Assembly: GCA_041665925.1 (NCBI GenBank)
Contig: JBAYHW010000001.1
Location: 102,685 to 166,684 of the forward strand
Direction: 5' to 3'
DNA: 64,000 nucleotides
Origin: Minisyncoccota bacterium
Lineage (GTDB): Bacteria; Patescibacteriota; Minisyncoccia; Phycocordibacterales; UBA9973
A model generated the notes under the pieces. That model was not told where the DNA came from. It did not search any database and saw nothing but the letters and a program-made list of their open reading frames with translations. Shown one piece after another: positions 4,125-63,206 of this stretch. Each line of letters starts with the position of its first letter. Position 1 is the first letter of the stretch. The position numbers were made by a program, and so were the translations under genes.

Positions 4125-4395
4125 TGATATTCAATCGTTGAATATCAGCCGACCAAAATCCGAAGATTTTGGGTTTGGAGTGAGGGCCCGTTTCCGGGCC
4201 CTCGGGGTTGTTGTGACCACTGTGTAGCCCGATGTCGGATGGCTACTGGGTCGTCTCGGGGTTCACGGCGCCGGCGATCTTCGCGACGGTCTGCGGGTTC
4301 GACTGGGGCGGCGAATGGAAGGAACGATAGGTGAAACTCTTCATGATGTTTCTCCTTTTTCATCGAGCTTATCCCGGTTCCCGGGGGCTCGATAA
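4125..4395 (-). other. GC-rich structured island: stacked hairpins with GAAA and UUCG tetraloops, consistent with a minus-strand structured RNA. It also contains SD-led micro-ORFs.
   Basis: On the minus strand the hairpins are GAGGGCCCG-GAAA-CGGGCCCUC (4182-4203), CCAAAAUC-UUCG-GAUUUUGG (4153-4172), UGAUAUUCAA-CGA-UUGAAUAUCA (4125-4147), and AUCGAGC(CCCGG-GAA-CCGGG...)GCUCGAU (4363-4393). GC content is far above the flanking DNA. Confidence 0.45.
4243..4344 (-). CDS. Micro-ORF (33 aa, MKSFTYRSFHSPPQSNPQTVAKIAGAVNPETTQ) with a strong SD (AAGGAG 7 nt upstream), lying inside the GC-rich island
   Basis: The ATG at 4344 is preceded by aaaaaGGAGaaacatc. The antisense plus-strand frame 4232-4330 encodes a hydrophobic 32-aa peptide, MSDGYWVVSGFTAPAIFATVCGFDWGGEWKER. 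Which strand is translated, if either, is unresolved. Confidence 0.25.
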   Translation of the reverse strand: MKSFTYRSFHSPPQSNPQTVAKIAGAVNPETTQ

Positions 4396-4470
4396 TAGTA
4401 TCGTGCAATATATATATATGAATTGCAAGAGAGGTTATTAACAGGGCTAAAAAGTGGTAGAATCAATAAT

Positions 4471-38197: not shown

Positions 38198-38947
38198 TTA
38201 TTCTAAATAAATGAGCGCAACCATAGCAAGCACACCAGCGATGACAGCAATAATTTGAAGCAGCGAATGTTTCATTTCTTTTGTTTTGTGGAGTTCTGGT
38301 ATGAGGTCAGCGACTGAGACATAGATGAAGCCTCCAGCAGCTATGGGTAGAATCCATATAGTAAAAACTTCTCCTATACCACCCAGCAAAAAGGCAACGA
38401 ACACACCAATGATAGAGAAAAGAGCAGAAAGAAAATTTAACCAGAGTGCCCTAGATTTAGTGTAGCCAGAATGAAGCAAAACGGCGAAATCCCCTATTTC
38501 TTGAGGGATTTCGTGTAATATCACAGCTATGGTTGTGGCAACACCAACGTGTGGACTCACAAGGAAACTTACGCCGATAATTATACCGTCGATAAAATTG
38601 TGTACTCCATCAGAGATAAGGATCAACTGCCCTGCGGGGTGAATTCCTGACTCATCTTGATCTTCGCCGTGGTGGTGCCAATGTAAGAATTTTTCTAAAA
38701 TAAAAAATATCAAAATTCCAACAATTATTAAAGTGCTGGCAAACAACTCCCCTACCGAACTTTTAAAAGCTTCCGGAATAAGATGGATAAAAGCGTCTCC
38801 CAAGAGTGCCCCGACTGCAAGAGAAATAAAAATGAAAAGATATTTTCTTAAAAGTTCTTCTTTGACAGACAGAGCGAAGACTCCTACAAGAGAAACTAGG
38901 CTTACAATTACCACACTCACAAAGGCGTATAAATATGTCGTTATCAT
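38198..38947 (-). CDS. zupT: ZIP-family zinc transporter
   Basis: The HEIPQEIGDFAVLL signature and eight TM helices are present. Confidence 0.8.
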   Translation of the reverse strand: MITTYLYAFVSVVIVSLVSLVGVFALSVKEELLRKYLFIFISLAVGALLGDAFIHLIPEAFKSSVGELFASTLIIVGILIFFILEKFLHWHHHGEDQDESGIHPAGQLILISDGVHNFIDGIIIGVSFLVSPHVGVATTIAVILHEIPQEIGDFAVLLHSGYTKSRALWLNFLSALFSIIGVFVAFLLGGIGEVFTIWILPIAAGGFIYVSVADLIPELHKTKEMKHSLLQIIAVIAGVLAMVALIYLE

Positions 38948-39006
38948 TTGTTAATCGTATACTAAAAAAAACTATTTGCAAAATAAAATCAAATAAAATG
39001 TGAAAG

Positions 39007-39040
39007 GCGGGGCGTCGCGATGTTTTGCGACGCCCCGCCC
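39007..39040 (-). terminator. Intrinsic terminator: a 13-bp perfect GC stem GGCGGGGCGTCGC...GCGACGCCCCGCC followed by a U-run on the minus strand
   Basis: Read directly. It lies immediately 3' of the GC-rich micro-ORF on the minus strand. Confidence 0.75.
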
Positions 39041-39050
39041 GTGTGGCGAT

Positions 39051-39188
39051 CTACAACCAGCCCATTCTAATTGCGACCGACACTGCGGCCGCTACCAGAC
39101 ACAGGCCGGTGTAGAACTGGGCGTCGTTTGGAGGACCTACCAAGTCCTCCTTCAGCGCGGCCCAGTAGGCCCGTAGAATTTGTTTCAT
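39051..39188 (-). CDS. GC-rich small membrane peptide (45 aa, MKQILRAYWAALKEDLVGPPNDAQFYTGLCLVAAAVSVAIRMGWL), a self-contained expression unit
   Basis: It has a sigma70-like promoter (TTGACT, 16-nt spacer, TAGAAT) with an overlapping 7-bp inverted repeat (TACACTT/AAGTGTA), an SD GAGGAGG 5 nt before the ATG, a C-terminal TM helix, and a strong terminator. GC content and codon usage are unlike the host genes. Confidence 0.5.
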   Translation of the reverse strand: MKQILRAYWAALKEDLVGPPNDAQFYTGLCLVAAAVSVAIRMGWL

Positions 39189-39258
39189 GGGAACCTCCTC
39201 GCTAAAAATTCTACATACAAATACACTTTAGTCAAGTGTATTAAAAGTTTATCTTCTG

Positions 39259-39329
39259 TGCGGGATGGGAGAATCGAACCCCCAACCTCAGTTTGGAAAA
39301 CTGACGTTTTACCATTAAACTAATCCCGC
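39259..39329 (-). tRNA. tRNA-Gly (anticodon UCC)
   Basis: A manual cloverleaf: acceptor GCGGGAU/AUCCCGC, anticodon loop UUUCCAA, T-loop UUCGAUU, no encoded CCA, and an A73 discriminator. Confidence 0.8.
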
Positions 39330-39352
39330 ATTTTCAATCTCCTTTCGACTTG

Positions 39353-39423
39353 TCGGGCTGCTGGGAATCGAACCCAGTCTATCTGTTCCCAAAACAGACG
39401 TACTACCGGTATACGACAGCCCG
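39353..39423 (-). tRNA. tRNA-Pro (anticodon UGG)
   Basis: A manual cloverleaf: acceptor CGGGCUG/CAGCCCG, a 3-bp D-stem, anticodon loop UUUGGGA, T-arm UGGG-UUCGAUU-CCCA, and no encoded CCA. Confidence 0.8.
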
Positions 39424-39450
39424 TTTGACTTTTAAAGCTTTCCGAGTATA

Positions 39451-39861
39451 TCACAAAATAATATCACTGACTACTTTTATTCGTGCTTTTTTGTTTTTCA
39501 TATCTAAAAATACTACCAATAAATCTACTTGCCAATCCTTTTCGTCAGGGATTTTATTAGACAAAAGATAGGTCTGAATTGTTCTCGAAAGTCGTTTCAA
39601 TTTCCAGGGATGCACATTGTCTTCAGGGTGATATTGATCTAACGTGTCACGTGTAACCTCTTTTAATGTTTCACGTGATACACTTTTTACCTCAATAAAG
39701 TATATTTTATTGGCTTTTTCAGCAATTATATCTATTTCACCCCATTTTTTGGTATAATTTCTATCTAATATTGAAAAACCATGTTTCACGAGAAACTTTA
39801 CGGCAATATTTTCTCCTATTTCTCCAGTCTTTTGGCTTTCAGATGTGAATACTTTTGGCAT
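39451..39861 (-). CDS. yraN: UPF0102/YraN-family endonuclease
   Basis: Contains GEIDIIA...YFIEVK, the restriction-endonuclease-like core of YraN. Confidence 0.65.
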   Translation of the reverse strand: MPKVFTSESQKTGEIGENIAVKFLVKHGFSILDRNYTKKWGEIDIIAEKANKIYFIEVKSVSRETLKEVTRDTLDQYHPEDNVHPWKLKRLSRTIQTYLLSNKIPDEKDWQVDLLVVFLDMKNKKARIKVVSDIIL

Positions 39862-59035: not shown

Positions 59036-59200
59036 TAAAAAATCCTCAAGTAATGAGGAAAGATTTTTATGTGGACTAGACATACTTATCTTTCCCGATA
59101 TTGTTTTCACAACATCTGGTTGGATTTAGCACCTTTCTTTTAGGTTGCTGGGCGGGTCATTGAGCCAATTCTCTCGTCGCCACTCTCGATATATTTAGTT
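59036..59200 (-). ncRNA. SAM-I (S-box) riboswitch with a terminator expression platform, in the metK leader
   Basis: The minus-strand RNA reads AUAUCGAGAGUGGCGACGAGAGAAUUGGCUCAAUGACCCGCCCAGCAACC...AGGUGCUAAAUCCAACCAG...AUCGGGAAAGAUAAG. The S-box hallmarks UC.AGAG.GG, AUGA, GCAACC, GGUGCUAAAUCC and GAUAAG are all present. A terminator hairpin UCCUCA-UUACU-UGAGGA with a U-run follows, and its 5' arm is complementary to GGAAAG, which would form an antiterminator. Confidence 0.7.
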
Positions 59201-61631: not shown

Positions 61632-63206
61632 ATGAGCTTTGCTAAAGTATATTCAGCTCAAGTGAATCTACTGTCTGGAGCTATTGTAACCATTGAAGTG
61701 GACCTCTCTAGGGGGTTACACACTTTTAGTGTAGTGGGCCTACCGGACAAAGCCGTAGACGAATCTAAAGACCGAGTCAGTGGAGCTATTAAAAATTCCG
61801 GATTTAAATCTCCGAAAGCCCAGAATCAAAAAATTATTGTTTCACTTTCCCCAGCGGATTTGAAGAAAGAAGGGCCGTTTTTTGATTTGGCCATAGCCAT
61901 TGCTTATCTTAAATCTACTGGGGATATAAAGTTTGATTCCGAGAAGAAAATTTTCTTAGGGGAGCTCGGGCTGGATGGAACCTTGCGAGCCGTTCGGGGC
62001 GCATTGCCACTTGCCCAAGAAGCTAAAAGGCGTGGTTTCGAAGAAATATATTTACCGAAAGAAAATGCCGTAGAGGCAGCATTAGTGGAAGGAATTAAAA
62101 TTTTTGGAGCAGGGAGCTTGAATGAAGTTGTGGAGCACATAGCCCCGACACCTAAAGGGGTCGGGGTCCCGACATCGGATAAAGTCCGAGCGTCGGGAAC
62201 GAAGATTCCAGTTCAACCACAAACTAAGGTAAACTATAAAAAAGAACACAAAGGAGCGGATTTCTCTGATATTCGCGGACAAGAGGGAGCCAAAAGGGGT
62301 CTCGAAATTGCCGCAGCCGGCGGGCACAACATAGCCATGTATGGCCCGCCGGGCACAGGGAAAACGATGCTCGCGCGAGCGTTTTCGGAGCTATTGCCCG
62401 AGCTAAGCCTAGAAGAAGTGCTGGAGCTCACGGGGATACACTCCGTGGCGGGAAGCACGCAAGGAGAGCTCGTGTGCTTCCCGCCTTTTCGCGCTCCGCA
62501 CCACACTGCTTCTTATGTATCAATTATCGGTGGAGGGACTTTCCCAAAACCCGGCGAAGTCACCCTCGCACACCGTGGAGTATTGTTCTTGGATGAATTT
62601 CCAGAATTTGAAAAGAGAGTTATAGAATCTCTACGTCAGCCACTCGAAGACAATATCGTCTCAATCTCACGGGCGAGAGGCACCGCTGTTTTTCCTTCCA
62701 ATTTTATTCTCGTCGCAGCGATGAATCCTTGCCCGTGCGGAAATGCTGGTAACAAACAAAAAGCCTGCATTTGCAAACCAGGAGATTTAGATAGATACAA
62801 AAGAAAATTGTCTGGCCCAATCGTGGATCGTATTGATCTTTGGGTATCTGTCGGCAATGTGGATTACAAAAAACTTGGAGACGTCGGAAGCGGGGAGAGA
62901 AGTGAAAATATAAAAGAAAGAGTGATCAAAGCGCGAGCCAAGCAAAGAGAAAGATTTCAAAAATTTGGAAAGAAAATTACTTCCAATAGTGAAATGAATG
63001 TGAAAGATTTAGAAAACATGGTGAGGCTCGCGCCCGAAGTTCGCGATCTCTTGGACAGGAGCGCAGAGAACCTAAGTCTGTCTGCTCGTGCTTATCACCG
63101 AGTCATAAAAATCGCCCGTACTATCGCGGACCTCGAAAATTCAGAAAATGTGGAAGCGAATCATATACTGGAAGCCATACAATACAGACCAAAGGTGAAT
63201 TCGTAA
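61632..63206 (+). CDS. comM: Mg-chelatase-like AAA+ ATPase YifB/ComM
   Basis: An N-terminal Lon-protease-like domain, Walker A GPPGTGKTM, and the C-terminal ChlI-like domain over 524 aa. Confidence 0.85.
   Translation: MSFAKVYSAQVNLLSGAIVTIEVDLSRGLHTFSVVGLPDKAVDESKDRVSGAIKNSGFKSPKAQNQKIIVSLSPADLKKEGPFFDLAIAIAYLKSTGDIKFDSEKKIFLGELGLDGTLRAVRGALPLAQEAKRRGFEEIYLPKENAVEAALVEGIKIFGAGSLNEVVEHIAPTPKGVGVPTSDKVRASGTKIPVQPQTKVNYKKEHKGADFSDIRGQEGAKRGLEIAAAGGHNIAMYGPPGTGKTMLARAFSELLPELSLEEVLELTGIHSVAGSTQGELVCFPPFRAPHHTASYVSIIGGGTFPKPGEVTLAHRGVLFLDEFPEFEKRVIESLRQPLEDNIVSISRARGTAVFPSNFILVAAMNPCPCGNAGNKQKACICKPGDLDRYKRKLSGPIVDRIDLWVSVGNVDYKKLGDVGSGERSENIKERVIKARAKQRERFQKFGKKITSNSEMNVKDLENMVRLAPEVRDLLDRSAENLSLSARAYHRVIKIARTIADLENSENVEANHILEAIQYRPKVNS

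Follow-up and report, generated by a model that had tools for sequence, protein, structure and literature searches.

What is a compact island of GC-rich DNA doing between a tRNA gene and a metal-transporter gene in an otherwise AT-rich genome, and does it encode a protein or an RNA? The question is raised by a unit at 38991-39242 on the minus strand of a 64,000-nt stretch from a Minisyncoccota bacterium (contig JBAYHW010000001.1, positions 102,685 to 166,684; the whole stretch is called the window below), where it occupies the gap between tRNA-Gly(UCC) and zupT, the gene for a ZIP-family metal transporter. The genome belongs to the Paceibacterota, within the candidate phyla radiation (CPR), and is AT-rich (~37% GC over the window), with its closest relatives among metagenome-assembled genomes (MAGs) of Nomurabacteria, Paceibacterota and Minisyncoccia; against this background the 200-nt bin 39001-39200 has the highest GC of the window, 0.605. 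Our answer, to which we give a probability of roughly 0.7, is that the unit is a real small membrane-protein gene and also one allele of a clade-specific, hypervariable, moron-like slot for small membrane proteins. As read from its sequence, the gene appears to be independently transcribed, it is unannotated, and its product would be a bitopic membrane peptide of 45 residues. Chance does not account for the unit, because its transcript folds at z = -8.3 (the open reading frame (ORF) by itself at z = -4.2) and because a syntenic protein homologue exists.

Anatomy and coding character of the unit

All of the parts that the original prediction had listed for a complete unit, running from a promoter through a Shine-Dalgarno (SD) sequence and an ORF to a terminator, are present on the minus strand:

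39208-39235, minus strand: sigma-70-type promoter TTGACT-16 nt-TAGAAT (-35 at 39235-39230, -10 at 39213-39208)
39220-39242, no strand assigned: 9-bp perfect inverted repeat AATACACTT-N5-AAGTGTATT (arms 39220-39228 and 39234-39242), overlapping the -35 hexamer
39173-39214, no strand assigned: 9-bp inverted repeat GTAGAATTT/AAATTCTAC, bracketing the ribosome-binding site (RBS) and start codon, its left arm taking in the -10 box
39194-39200, minus strand: Shine-Dalgarno GAGGAGG, 5 nt before the ATG, only partly paired in the minimum-free-energy fold
39051-39188, minus strand: 45-codon ORF plus stop, MKQILRAYWAALKEDLVGPPNDAQFYTGLCLVAAAVSVAIRMGWL, the putative small membrane-peptide gene
38991-39039, minus strand: intrinsic-terminator-like hairpin with a 13-bp perfect GC stem (39006-39018 and 39027-39039) and an 8-nt loop, followed by the U-tract UUUCACAUUUUAUUU

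The promoter, described at the outset as near-consensus, agrees with the consensus at 10 of 12 positions and is one of two promoter-like sites in the 700 nt from 38800 to 39500, where shuffled sequences hold a mean of 1.1; transcription is predicted to start near 39203-39201. Its block TTGACTAAA...TATGTAGAATT is kept in a related locus, L170, and similar promoters stand at the other filled loci. An inverted repeat does lie over the -35, as had been reported, but its arms measure 9 bp and not 7. Such a repeat could act as an operator; it is, however, the single copy in the window and is not kept in the homologous L170 module, and the operator reading was set aside on these grounds. The hairpin likewise has the perfect 13-bp stem that had been described, but the U-run after it is interrupted. 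Taken together, the consensus promoter and the strong, largely unpaired SD argue for high constitutive expression, as far as sequence can predict it. The 64-kb window holds no second copy of any part of the unit.

The syntenic homologue lies in L170, a zupT locus of a Minisyncoccia MAG (GCA_049303715.1) whose ZupT is 80% identical to that of the window. At the same position, directly upstream of zupT, L170 has a 40-codon ORF, MNLLERYWAELREERPGPPNNVQFATIMIVFLAVALWWIS (1781-1903), and both of its promoters are near-identical to those of the window. Pairwise BLASTP aligns the two peptides at 44% identity over 32 aa (E = 3e-10), and a tblastn search with the window peptide over 0.8 Mb of fetched loci returns the L170 match at E = 1e-5; common to both are L..YWA.L[KR]E[DE]..GPPN..QF.T and a hydrophobic tail. 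Different codons specify 6 of the 16 identical residues, and the ratio of nonsynonymous to synonymous divergence (dN/dS) runs from ~0.5 over the N-terminal 26 codons to 0.65. The sequence of the terminator and of a second hairpin is not kept between the two, and besides the sense promoters their modules share no non-coding block. Hairpins kept without the ORF, the pattern that the original prediction had associated with an RNA element, are the reverse of what is seen, with L170 retaining the peptide and not the terminator hairpin sequence. An assembly artefact, which had been envisaged should all relatives lack the unit and signs of contamination appear, is ruled out by the syntenic homologue and by the presence of the locus on contigs from two assemblies. 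A candidate for a third homologue, in L151, is actually part of an unrelated AT-rich coding region, and closer strains for a stronger dN/dS test do not exist, the nearest ZupT being 82% identical. The public gene call at L170:1798-2013 is a spurious 71-aa ORF on the strand opposite the true 40-aa small ORF, an example of how GC-rich small genes are mis-annotated in AT-rich genomes.

Composition was examined codon position by codon position. GC at positions 1, 2 and 3 of the window ORF is 0.60, 0.44 and 0.69 (GC3 > GC1 > GC2), whereas GC3 averages 0.33 in 42 long host ORFs (range 0.24-0.43) and reaches at least 0.6 in just 0.8% of 45-codon host windows; the foreign-like composition reported at first, with a GC3 unlike that of the host, is therefore upheld. 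We favour a protein over an RNA element as the product of the island because the GC enrichment tracks codon position, because L170 has a homologue with synonymous changes, and because an SD and a hydrophobic helix recur in every analogous unit. On this sequence evidence the earlier call of a coding ORF stands, given the GC3 periodicity, the synonymous changes in the syntenic homologue and the predicted order of helix, break and transmembrane (TM) segment.

The same observations bear on the idea of a non-coding structured RNA, either a small RNA (sRNA) or a 3' trailer of the tRNA operon, in which the ORF would be fortuitous. GC-rich islands in AT-rich genomes are classic signals of non-coding RNA, the fold of the transcript is extreme, no terminator separates tRNA-Gly from the unit, and gene callers leave the ORF uncalled (exact-sequence lookup finds it in no public source). 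Yet the GC enrichment is concentrated at codon position 3 in the window ORF and in all 16 cassette ORFs of the slot described below, every cassette has a correctly spaced SD, and between window and L170 it is the amino-acid sequence that persists through synonymous changes, not the sequence of the two hairpins. Nor does Rfam hold a family for the unit, whether the whole window is searched at the gathering threshold or the local region at E <= 10, where chance hairpin matches alone appear, and the loci of nine relatives contain no known RNA family. We regard this explanation as very improbable.

The peptide itself has a mean Kyte-Doolittle hydropathy of 1.7 over residues 27-45 (19-residue mean); the hydropathy of the peptide stretch is 1.7-2.1, and 12 of the 15 residues of GLCLVAAAVSVAIRM are hydrophobic. 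AlphaFold, run on the single sequence, places helices at residues 3-17 and 23-43 with a break at GPPND, at a mean pLDDT (predicted local distance difference test score) of 77. In this model the peptide starts with an amphipathic helix, which a GPPN break separates from a TM helix at the C-terminus, so that the C-terminal TM helix proposed originally is recovered, as a moderate call, by hydropathy and structure prediction alike. No protein in a word-indexed search of 5.8 billion sequences matches the peptide, and phmmer finds none among 1.84 billion representatives. A profile built from three cassette peptides recovers only itself among the 5.8 billion proteins and nothing in IMG/VR, searches of 17 cassette peptides against Pfam and NCBIfam (E <= 1), PHROGs and PADLOC give nothing significant, and blastn of the unit against phages and plasmids yields chance matches of 27-35 nt only.

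The original prediction called this architecture typical of type I toxins or small membrane regulators. On the toxin reading, the 45-aa peptide would be membrane-depolarising and its structured mRNA would be repressed by an antisense or nearby small RNA. Searches for such toxins have used the rule of at least 10 hydrophobic residues in 15 (Fozo et al. 2010; PMC2887945), and the window peptide, a small TM peptide of 45 aa (< 70), falls within it; its gene is intergenic and unannotated, the transcript is very stable, tandem modules occur in the relatives L170, L085 and L162, and the inverted repeat around the RBS creates a plus-strand TAGAAT that is a possible start for an RNA antisense to the SD and ATG. 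This second repeat is, however, not conserved in L170, and the -35 for its TAGAAT matches at 3 of 6 positions only. A consensus scan of 38800-39500, which cannot exclude an sRNA, found no plus-strand promoter-like site, and the ~22 nt from the tRNA to the -35 leave no room for a divergent one. The unit matches no known toxin family in Pfam or NCBIfam and conserves no extra non-coding block, significant ORF-internal structure is present in 3 of 11 cassette ORFs only, and the high constitutive translation predicted from a consensus promoter and a strong, partly paired SD is hard to square with an unneutralised toxin. A type I system is consequently possible but unlikely. Our search of the literature on type I toxins in the CPR or on GC-rich small-protein cassettes found nothing.

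The slot between tRNA-Gly and zupT in related genomes

Whether the unit is a peculiarity of one genome or part of a wider pattern can be asked of the zupT loci of species genomes and metagenomes, to which we added the contigs encoding the closest ZupT proteins. The position in question is delimited in the window as follows:

39352-39423: tRNA-Pro(UGG), adjoining the tRNA-Gly(UCC) side of the slot
39258-39329, minus strand: tRNA-Gly(UCC), upstream border of the slot (ARAGORN; Rfam tRNA, 70.5 bits)
38954-38981, minus strand: inferred zupT promoter TTGCAA-16 nt-TACGAT, ending 6 nt before the zupT ATG (8 of 12 consensus positions, below the reporting level of the promoter scan)
38198-38947, minus strand: zupT, ZIP-family metal transporter, downstream border of the slot (PF02535; NCBI name ZIP family metal transporter, Candidatus Paceibacterota)

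An unoccupied tRNA-Gly/zupT junction, which the original prediction had suggested looking for, is indeed seen in relatives, and the insertion/deletion polymorphism is real. Empty loci are L013, L014, L082/83, L086, L095, L099, L108, L006 and L163/164. The end of tRNA-Gly(UCC) lies 1-3 nt from the zupT ATG in L013, L014, L082/83, L086, L095, L099 and L108, and ~70 nt before it in L163/164. The slot is filled in 10 of the 12 lineages having a ZupT at least 76% identical to that of the window, as well as in two more distant lineages (L087/88 and L011). In each module of the filled loci a promoter and an SD of the AAAGGAGG type precede a small ORF of 31-62 aa, after which comes a GC hairpin that has a T-run; each locus has one to three such ORFs, and L170 holds two complete tandem modules. 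The 16 small ORFs from 12 lineages all have an SD, a GC3 of 0.62-0.89 and a hydrophobic stretch.

The frame around these modules is conserved: at one end stands a promoter TTGAC[AT]A...TGTAG[AT]AT, and at the zupT end the block TTTTGCAAA...TATACGAT(A/T)A...ATG. In contrast to these flanks, the interiors are barely alignable even where zupT is 83-87% identical at the DNA level, and the peptides are mostly without detectable homology to each other. Small families emerge in three cases, namely window/L170c2, L085a/L162c2 and L162c3/L172, the last of which is aligned more weakly by L002 and L085b (13-20 identical residues). What the original prediction overlooked, as we read these loci, is that the unit is one allele of a hypervariable slot of small-ORF cassettes.

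Comparisons within families indicate how the cassettes evolve. Window and L170c2 have diverged to a dS of 0.9 with GC3 values of 0.69 and 0.70, and the second family, L162c3 versus L172, has a dN/dS of 0.25 at a dS of 1.3 with GC3 values of 0.81 and 0.89. GC3 is thus still high at a dS of ~1, and a single recent, un-ameliorated transfer is therefore no explanation for the composition. The proposal of horizontal transfer next to tRNA genes survives in part: presence and absence do vary among relatives, but a recent transfer is too simple an account of an AT-rich promoter frame that is common to ~12 related Paceibacterota/Minisyncoccia lineages and in which the interior is what changes, and the window unit is not flanked by any att-like duplication. 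A related possibility is that the unit is a decaying remnant of GC-rich foreign DNA recently integrated at a tRNA hotspot, transcribed by accident and without host function. Its foreign-like composition, its patchy presence, the larger GC-rich inserts in the same slot and the tRNA 3'-end duplications in L084 and L168, which show integration-like events nearby, would all suit this idea. Against it, complete expression signals are kept in all lineages, dN/dS is below 1 in two cassette families at a GC3 still of 0.7-0.9, and no donor homologues were found in the 5.8 billion proteins, the 1.84 billion representatives, phages or plasmids. Together with the missing att-like duplication, this makes a functionless remnant a very unlikely account.

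Other inserts were observed at or near this position. L165 has a ~900-nt GC-rich insert in the slot, including a 104-aa ORF with a Cys-rich C-terminus (MEEHERLVTKREV...CMSICPSPDRLVRLVID; L165/L166:1464-1778) that has no Pfam, PHROG or PADLOC match. Upstream of zupT in a Nomurabacteria MAG (L005:2624-2979) lies a ~350-nt GC-rich, hairpin-rich stretch without a convincing ORF, tRNA or Rfam match. A hairpin-rich insert of ~110-130 nt, placed immediately 3' of a gene for tRNA-Gly, tRNA-Val or tRNA-Pro, recurs at the following places, with a similar core in L015:

L084, ~100-245: tRNA-linked hairpin insert
L168/L169, ~1525-1650: tRNA-linked hairpin insert
L092, ~1175-1320: tRNA-linked hairpin insert
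L082/L083, ~1260-1365: tRNA-linked hairpin insert

In L084, L168/169 and L092 the insert ends with a 19-22-nt duplicate of the 3' end of that tRNA. Its common core, CGAAAGGnTTTTCG...CGAAAAnCACCTGGCTAyGTArTAGCC, has no Rfam match and is absent from the window; the insert looks like a tiny insertion targeting tRNA 3' ends or a tRNA-linked non-coding RNA.

Relation to zupT and other features of the window

The position of the unit immediately upstream of a metal transporter gene raises the possibility that it serves zupT. The adjacency of tRNA-Gly and zupT is ancestral, and the promoter block before zupT is conserved in filled loci (near-identical in L170, L002, L162 and L085). Because the TACGAT of this block ends 6 nt before the ATG, the sequence suggests a leaderless zupT mRNA that is made from a promoter of its own. 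The empty loci imply a leaderless mRNA as well, after tRNA processing, since the tRNA 3' end abuts the zupT ATG; tRNA 3' processing there would free an mRNA starting at or beside the AUG, an arrangement resembling tRNA punctuation (L013, L014, L082, L083, L086, L095, L099, L108).

This layout argues against the unit being a zupT leader, attenuator or riboswitch, because read-through RNA would have no SD for zupT. On such a view zupT would be controlled by termination at the GC hairpin, through a riboswitch or leader peptide. The unit does lie on the same strand immediately upstream of the transporter gene with the hairpin in between, the stop codon falls 11 nt before the stem so that a terminating ribosome would overlap it, and pairing would be possible between the 5' terminator arm and an 8-nt segment of the ORF, CGACGCCC. 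An 8-mer repeat is, however, expected by chance in 200 nt of GC-rich sequence, and the conserved promoter-like block between the hairpin and zupT, in which the promoter is inferred, implies that the transporter mRNA starts downstream of the hairpin and is leaderless. Relatives express zupT without any such element, interiors are non-homologous between lineages, and neither an Rfam match nor a conserved aptamer is present. Control of zupT by this element is thus extremely unlikely.

A different link to zupT would be at the protein level, with the peptide binding the ZIP transporter and tuning its activity or stability in the manner of KdpF, MgtS, MgtR or AcrZ. Every filled lineage has same-strand small ORFs directly upstream of zupT (of zur-zupT in L172), and all slot peptides are predicted to have a single TM helix. 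Against this, the peptides beside a conserved ZupT (66-82% identity) are for the most part non-homologous and differ in number, no cassette at all is present in many close relatives, and a strong hairpin and a separate promoter stand between the peptide gene and zupT; with the tRNA-Gly/zupT adjacency being ancestral, the position is perhaps historical and not functional. We consider a ZupT subunit or regulator improbable.

In one lineage (L172:1587-1997, L173:464-874) the small-ORF cassette is separated from zupT by a FUR-family (Zur-like) gene driven by the same TTGCAAAT...TAGTATATGAT promoter block, an arrangement that suggests metal regulation of this promoter.

Elsewhere in the window, a second foreign-looking module, GC-rich island 1, lies at 4170-4400 on the minus strand between ruvB and yebC and consists of a 5' hairpin, an AAAGGAG SD, a 33-codon ORF (MKSFTYRSFHSPPQSNPQTVAKIAGAVNPETTQ) and a 9-bp GC hairpin without a T-run. 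Its ORF has a GC3 of 0.88 and no TM helix, and the island has no sequence similarity to the 38991-39242 unit. A third GC-rich region, 62200-62600, is no island and lies within an ORF resembling a ComM/Mg-chelatase-type ATPase gene. A SAM-I riboswitch (RF00162, 50.8 bits, over the gathering threshold) is located at 59083-59195 on the minus strand.

Proposed role and comparison with known systems

If the unit is a small membrane-protein gene in a hypervariable slot, its product might work as follows. The C-terminal helix (residues ~26-45) would insert into the cytoplasmic membrane, and the amphipathic N-terminal helix and the GPPN..QF turn, both conserved, would face the cytoplasm. The peptide would be made abundantly and act as an accessory membrane peptide, encoded by a unit that follows the logic of a phage moron in being an autonomous addition with a foreign-like composition. 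Rapid turnover of the cassettes would point to a role in conflict or at an interface (exclusion, immunity or a membrane-active effector) and not to housekeeping or zinc-specific regulation.

Several points weigh against this reading. A single homologue of the window peptide was found, so that the case for purifying selection is built on 39 aligned codons. Support for the TM helix is moderate, with residue shuffling giving p = 0.07 for the hydrophobic stretch of the window peptide, and the strict terminator rule did not flag the hairpin because its U-tract is interrupted. The conflict or interface role is deduced from turnover and architecture only, and the chromosomal locus, with its housekeeping neighbours and no PHROG match, makes the unit no moron in the strict sense. 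Finally, the maintained GC3 richness is left unaccounted for: values of 0.7-0.9 persist in genomes of ~37% GC, even between homologous cassettes near synonymous saturation. Selection for RNA structure was rejected as a general cause of the GC richness, ORF-internal z being < -3 in only 3 of 11 cassette ORFs. GC-biased gene conversion was rejected as well, since it would enrich the homologous flanks, yet these are AT-rich, and a GC-rich donor pool fits poorly, none being visible in any database searched.

A more speculative proposal, to which we attach little weight, addresses this difficulty directly: the slot would serve an episymbiotic CPR clade as a dedicated site at which small membrane peptides are expressed and diversify, with GC3 actively maintained. 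GC3 might then be kept by selection for exceptionally stable mRNAs or, alternatively, the peptides or genes might match a GC-rich partner organism or mobile element or be exchanged with it, the slot then being a host-interface or conflict locus. If this were true, the slot would be a hypervariable small-ORF locus of a new kind, one that current annotation does not see.

In reduced CPR genomes, small hypothetical membrane proteins to which no role has been assigned make up a large share of the genes. Annotation systematically overlooks small membrane proteins, and the window gene is uncalled in any source; the favoured reading, a small membrane-protein gene in a hypervariable slot, would make the locus a clean example from nature of how a small-ORF slot in such genomes can be modular and turn over fast. 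It would also mean that GC-rich islands of AT-rich genomes are not always non-coding RNAs, and the GC3 puzzle is relevant to the forces that maintain the codon and GC composition of bacterial genomes.

Among known systems, integron cassettes resemble the slot in that short ORFs, each with a hairpin-forming sequence after it, make up a variable array downstream of a conserved stretch. Unlike integrons, the window carries neither an intI gene nor attI or attC core sites, the neighbourhood is free of integrase genes and the window hairpin lacks a GTTRRRY core; the slot hairpins are perfect GC stems with T-runs, as in terminators, and the modules carry their own promoters. A diversity-generating retroelement is not indicated either, as the 64-kb window contains no template-repeat copy of any unit part. 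KdpF, MgtS, MgtR and AcrZ are small transporter-associated membrane proteins, and the window peptide is like them a predicted single-TM peptide of 30-60 aa encoded beside a metal transporter gene. In contrast to them, its gene is predicted to form a separate transcription unit and is not conserved together with ZupT, and it is replaced by unrelated peptides in sister lineages.

The type I toxins Hok, Ldr, Fst, TisB, Ibs and ZorO share with the window peptide a length below 70 aa, one TM helix and an intergenic, unannotated gene (PMC2887945), and further similarities are the strongly structured mRNA, the tandem modules in some relatives and the narrow, patchy distribution. The differences are that the window unit gives no antitoxin RNA signal and has no sequence relation to any known family, that its SD is strong and accessible and its promoter near consensus, and that tandem modules in the slot are non-homologous and not duplicates.

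Phage morons are autonomous promoter-gene-terminator add-ons in prophages, such as HK97 gene 15, and are defined by their own promoter and terminator, a deviating GC content and their status as extra DNA relative to collinear relatives (PMC3594210). The window unit has its own promoter and terminator, stands out in GC (0.605 versus ~0.37 around it) and in GC3 (0.69 versus 0.33), and is extra DNA with respect to relatives with empty sites; its predicted cargo is a small membrane protein, and its content differs among close relatives. Unlike a moron, it lies outside any prophage, amid chromosomal housekeeping neighbours (tRNAs, the UPF0102 protein YraN, the CCA-adding enzyme and the Zip transporter zupT), its peptide has no PHROG match, and searches returned no phage or IMG/VR matches. 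The two-promoter frame of the slot is moreover vertically conserved while its interior turns over, and its GC3 richness has been held over long divergence. The unit belongs to a kind that is already known, that of unannotated small membrane proteins and of autonomous moron-like units beside tRNA genes; what is new is the peptide family, and the slot, in which the GC3 anomaly is maintained, is a variant worth noting.

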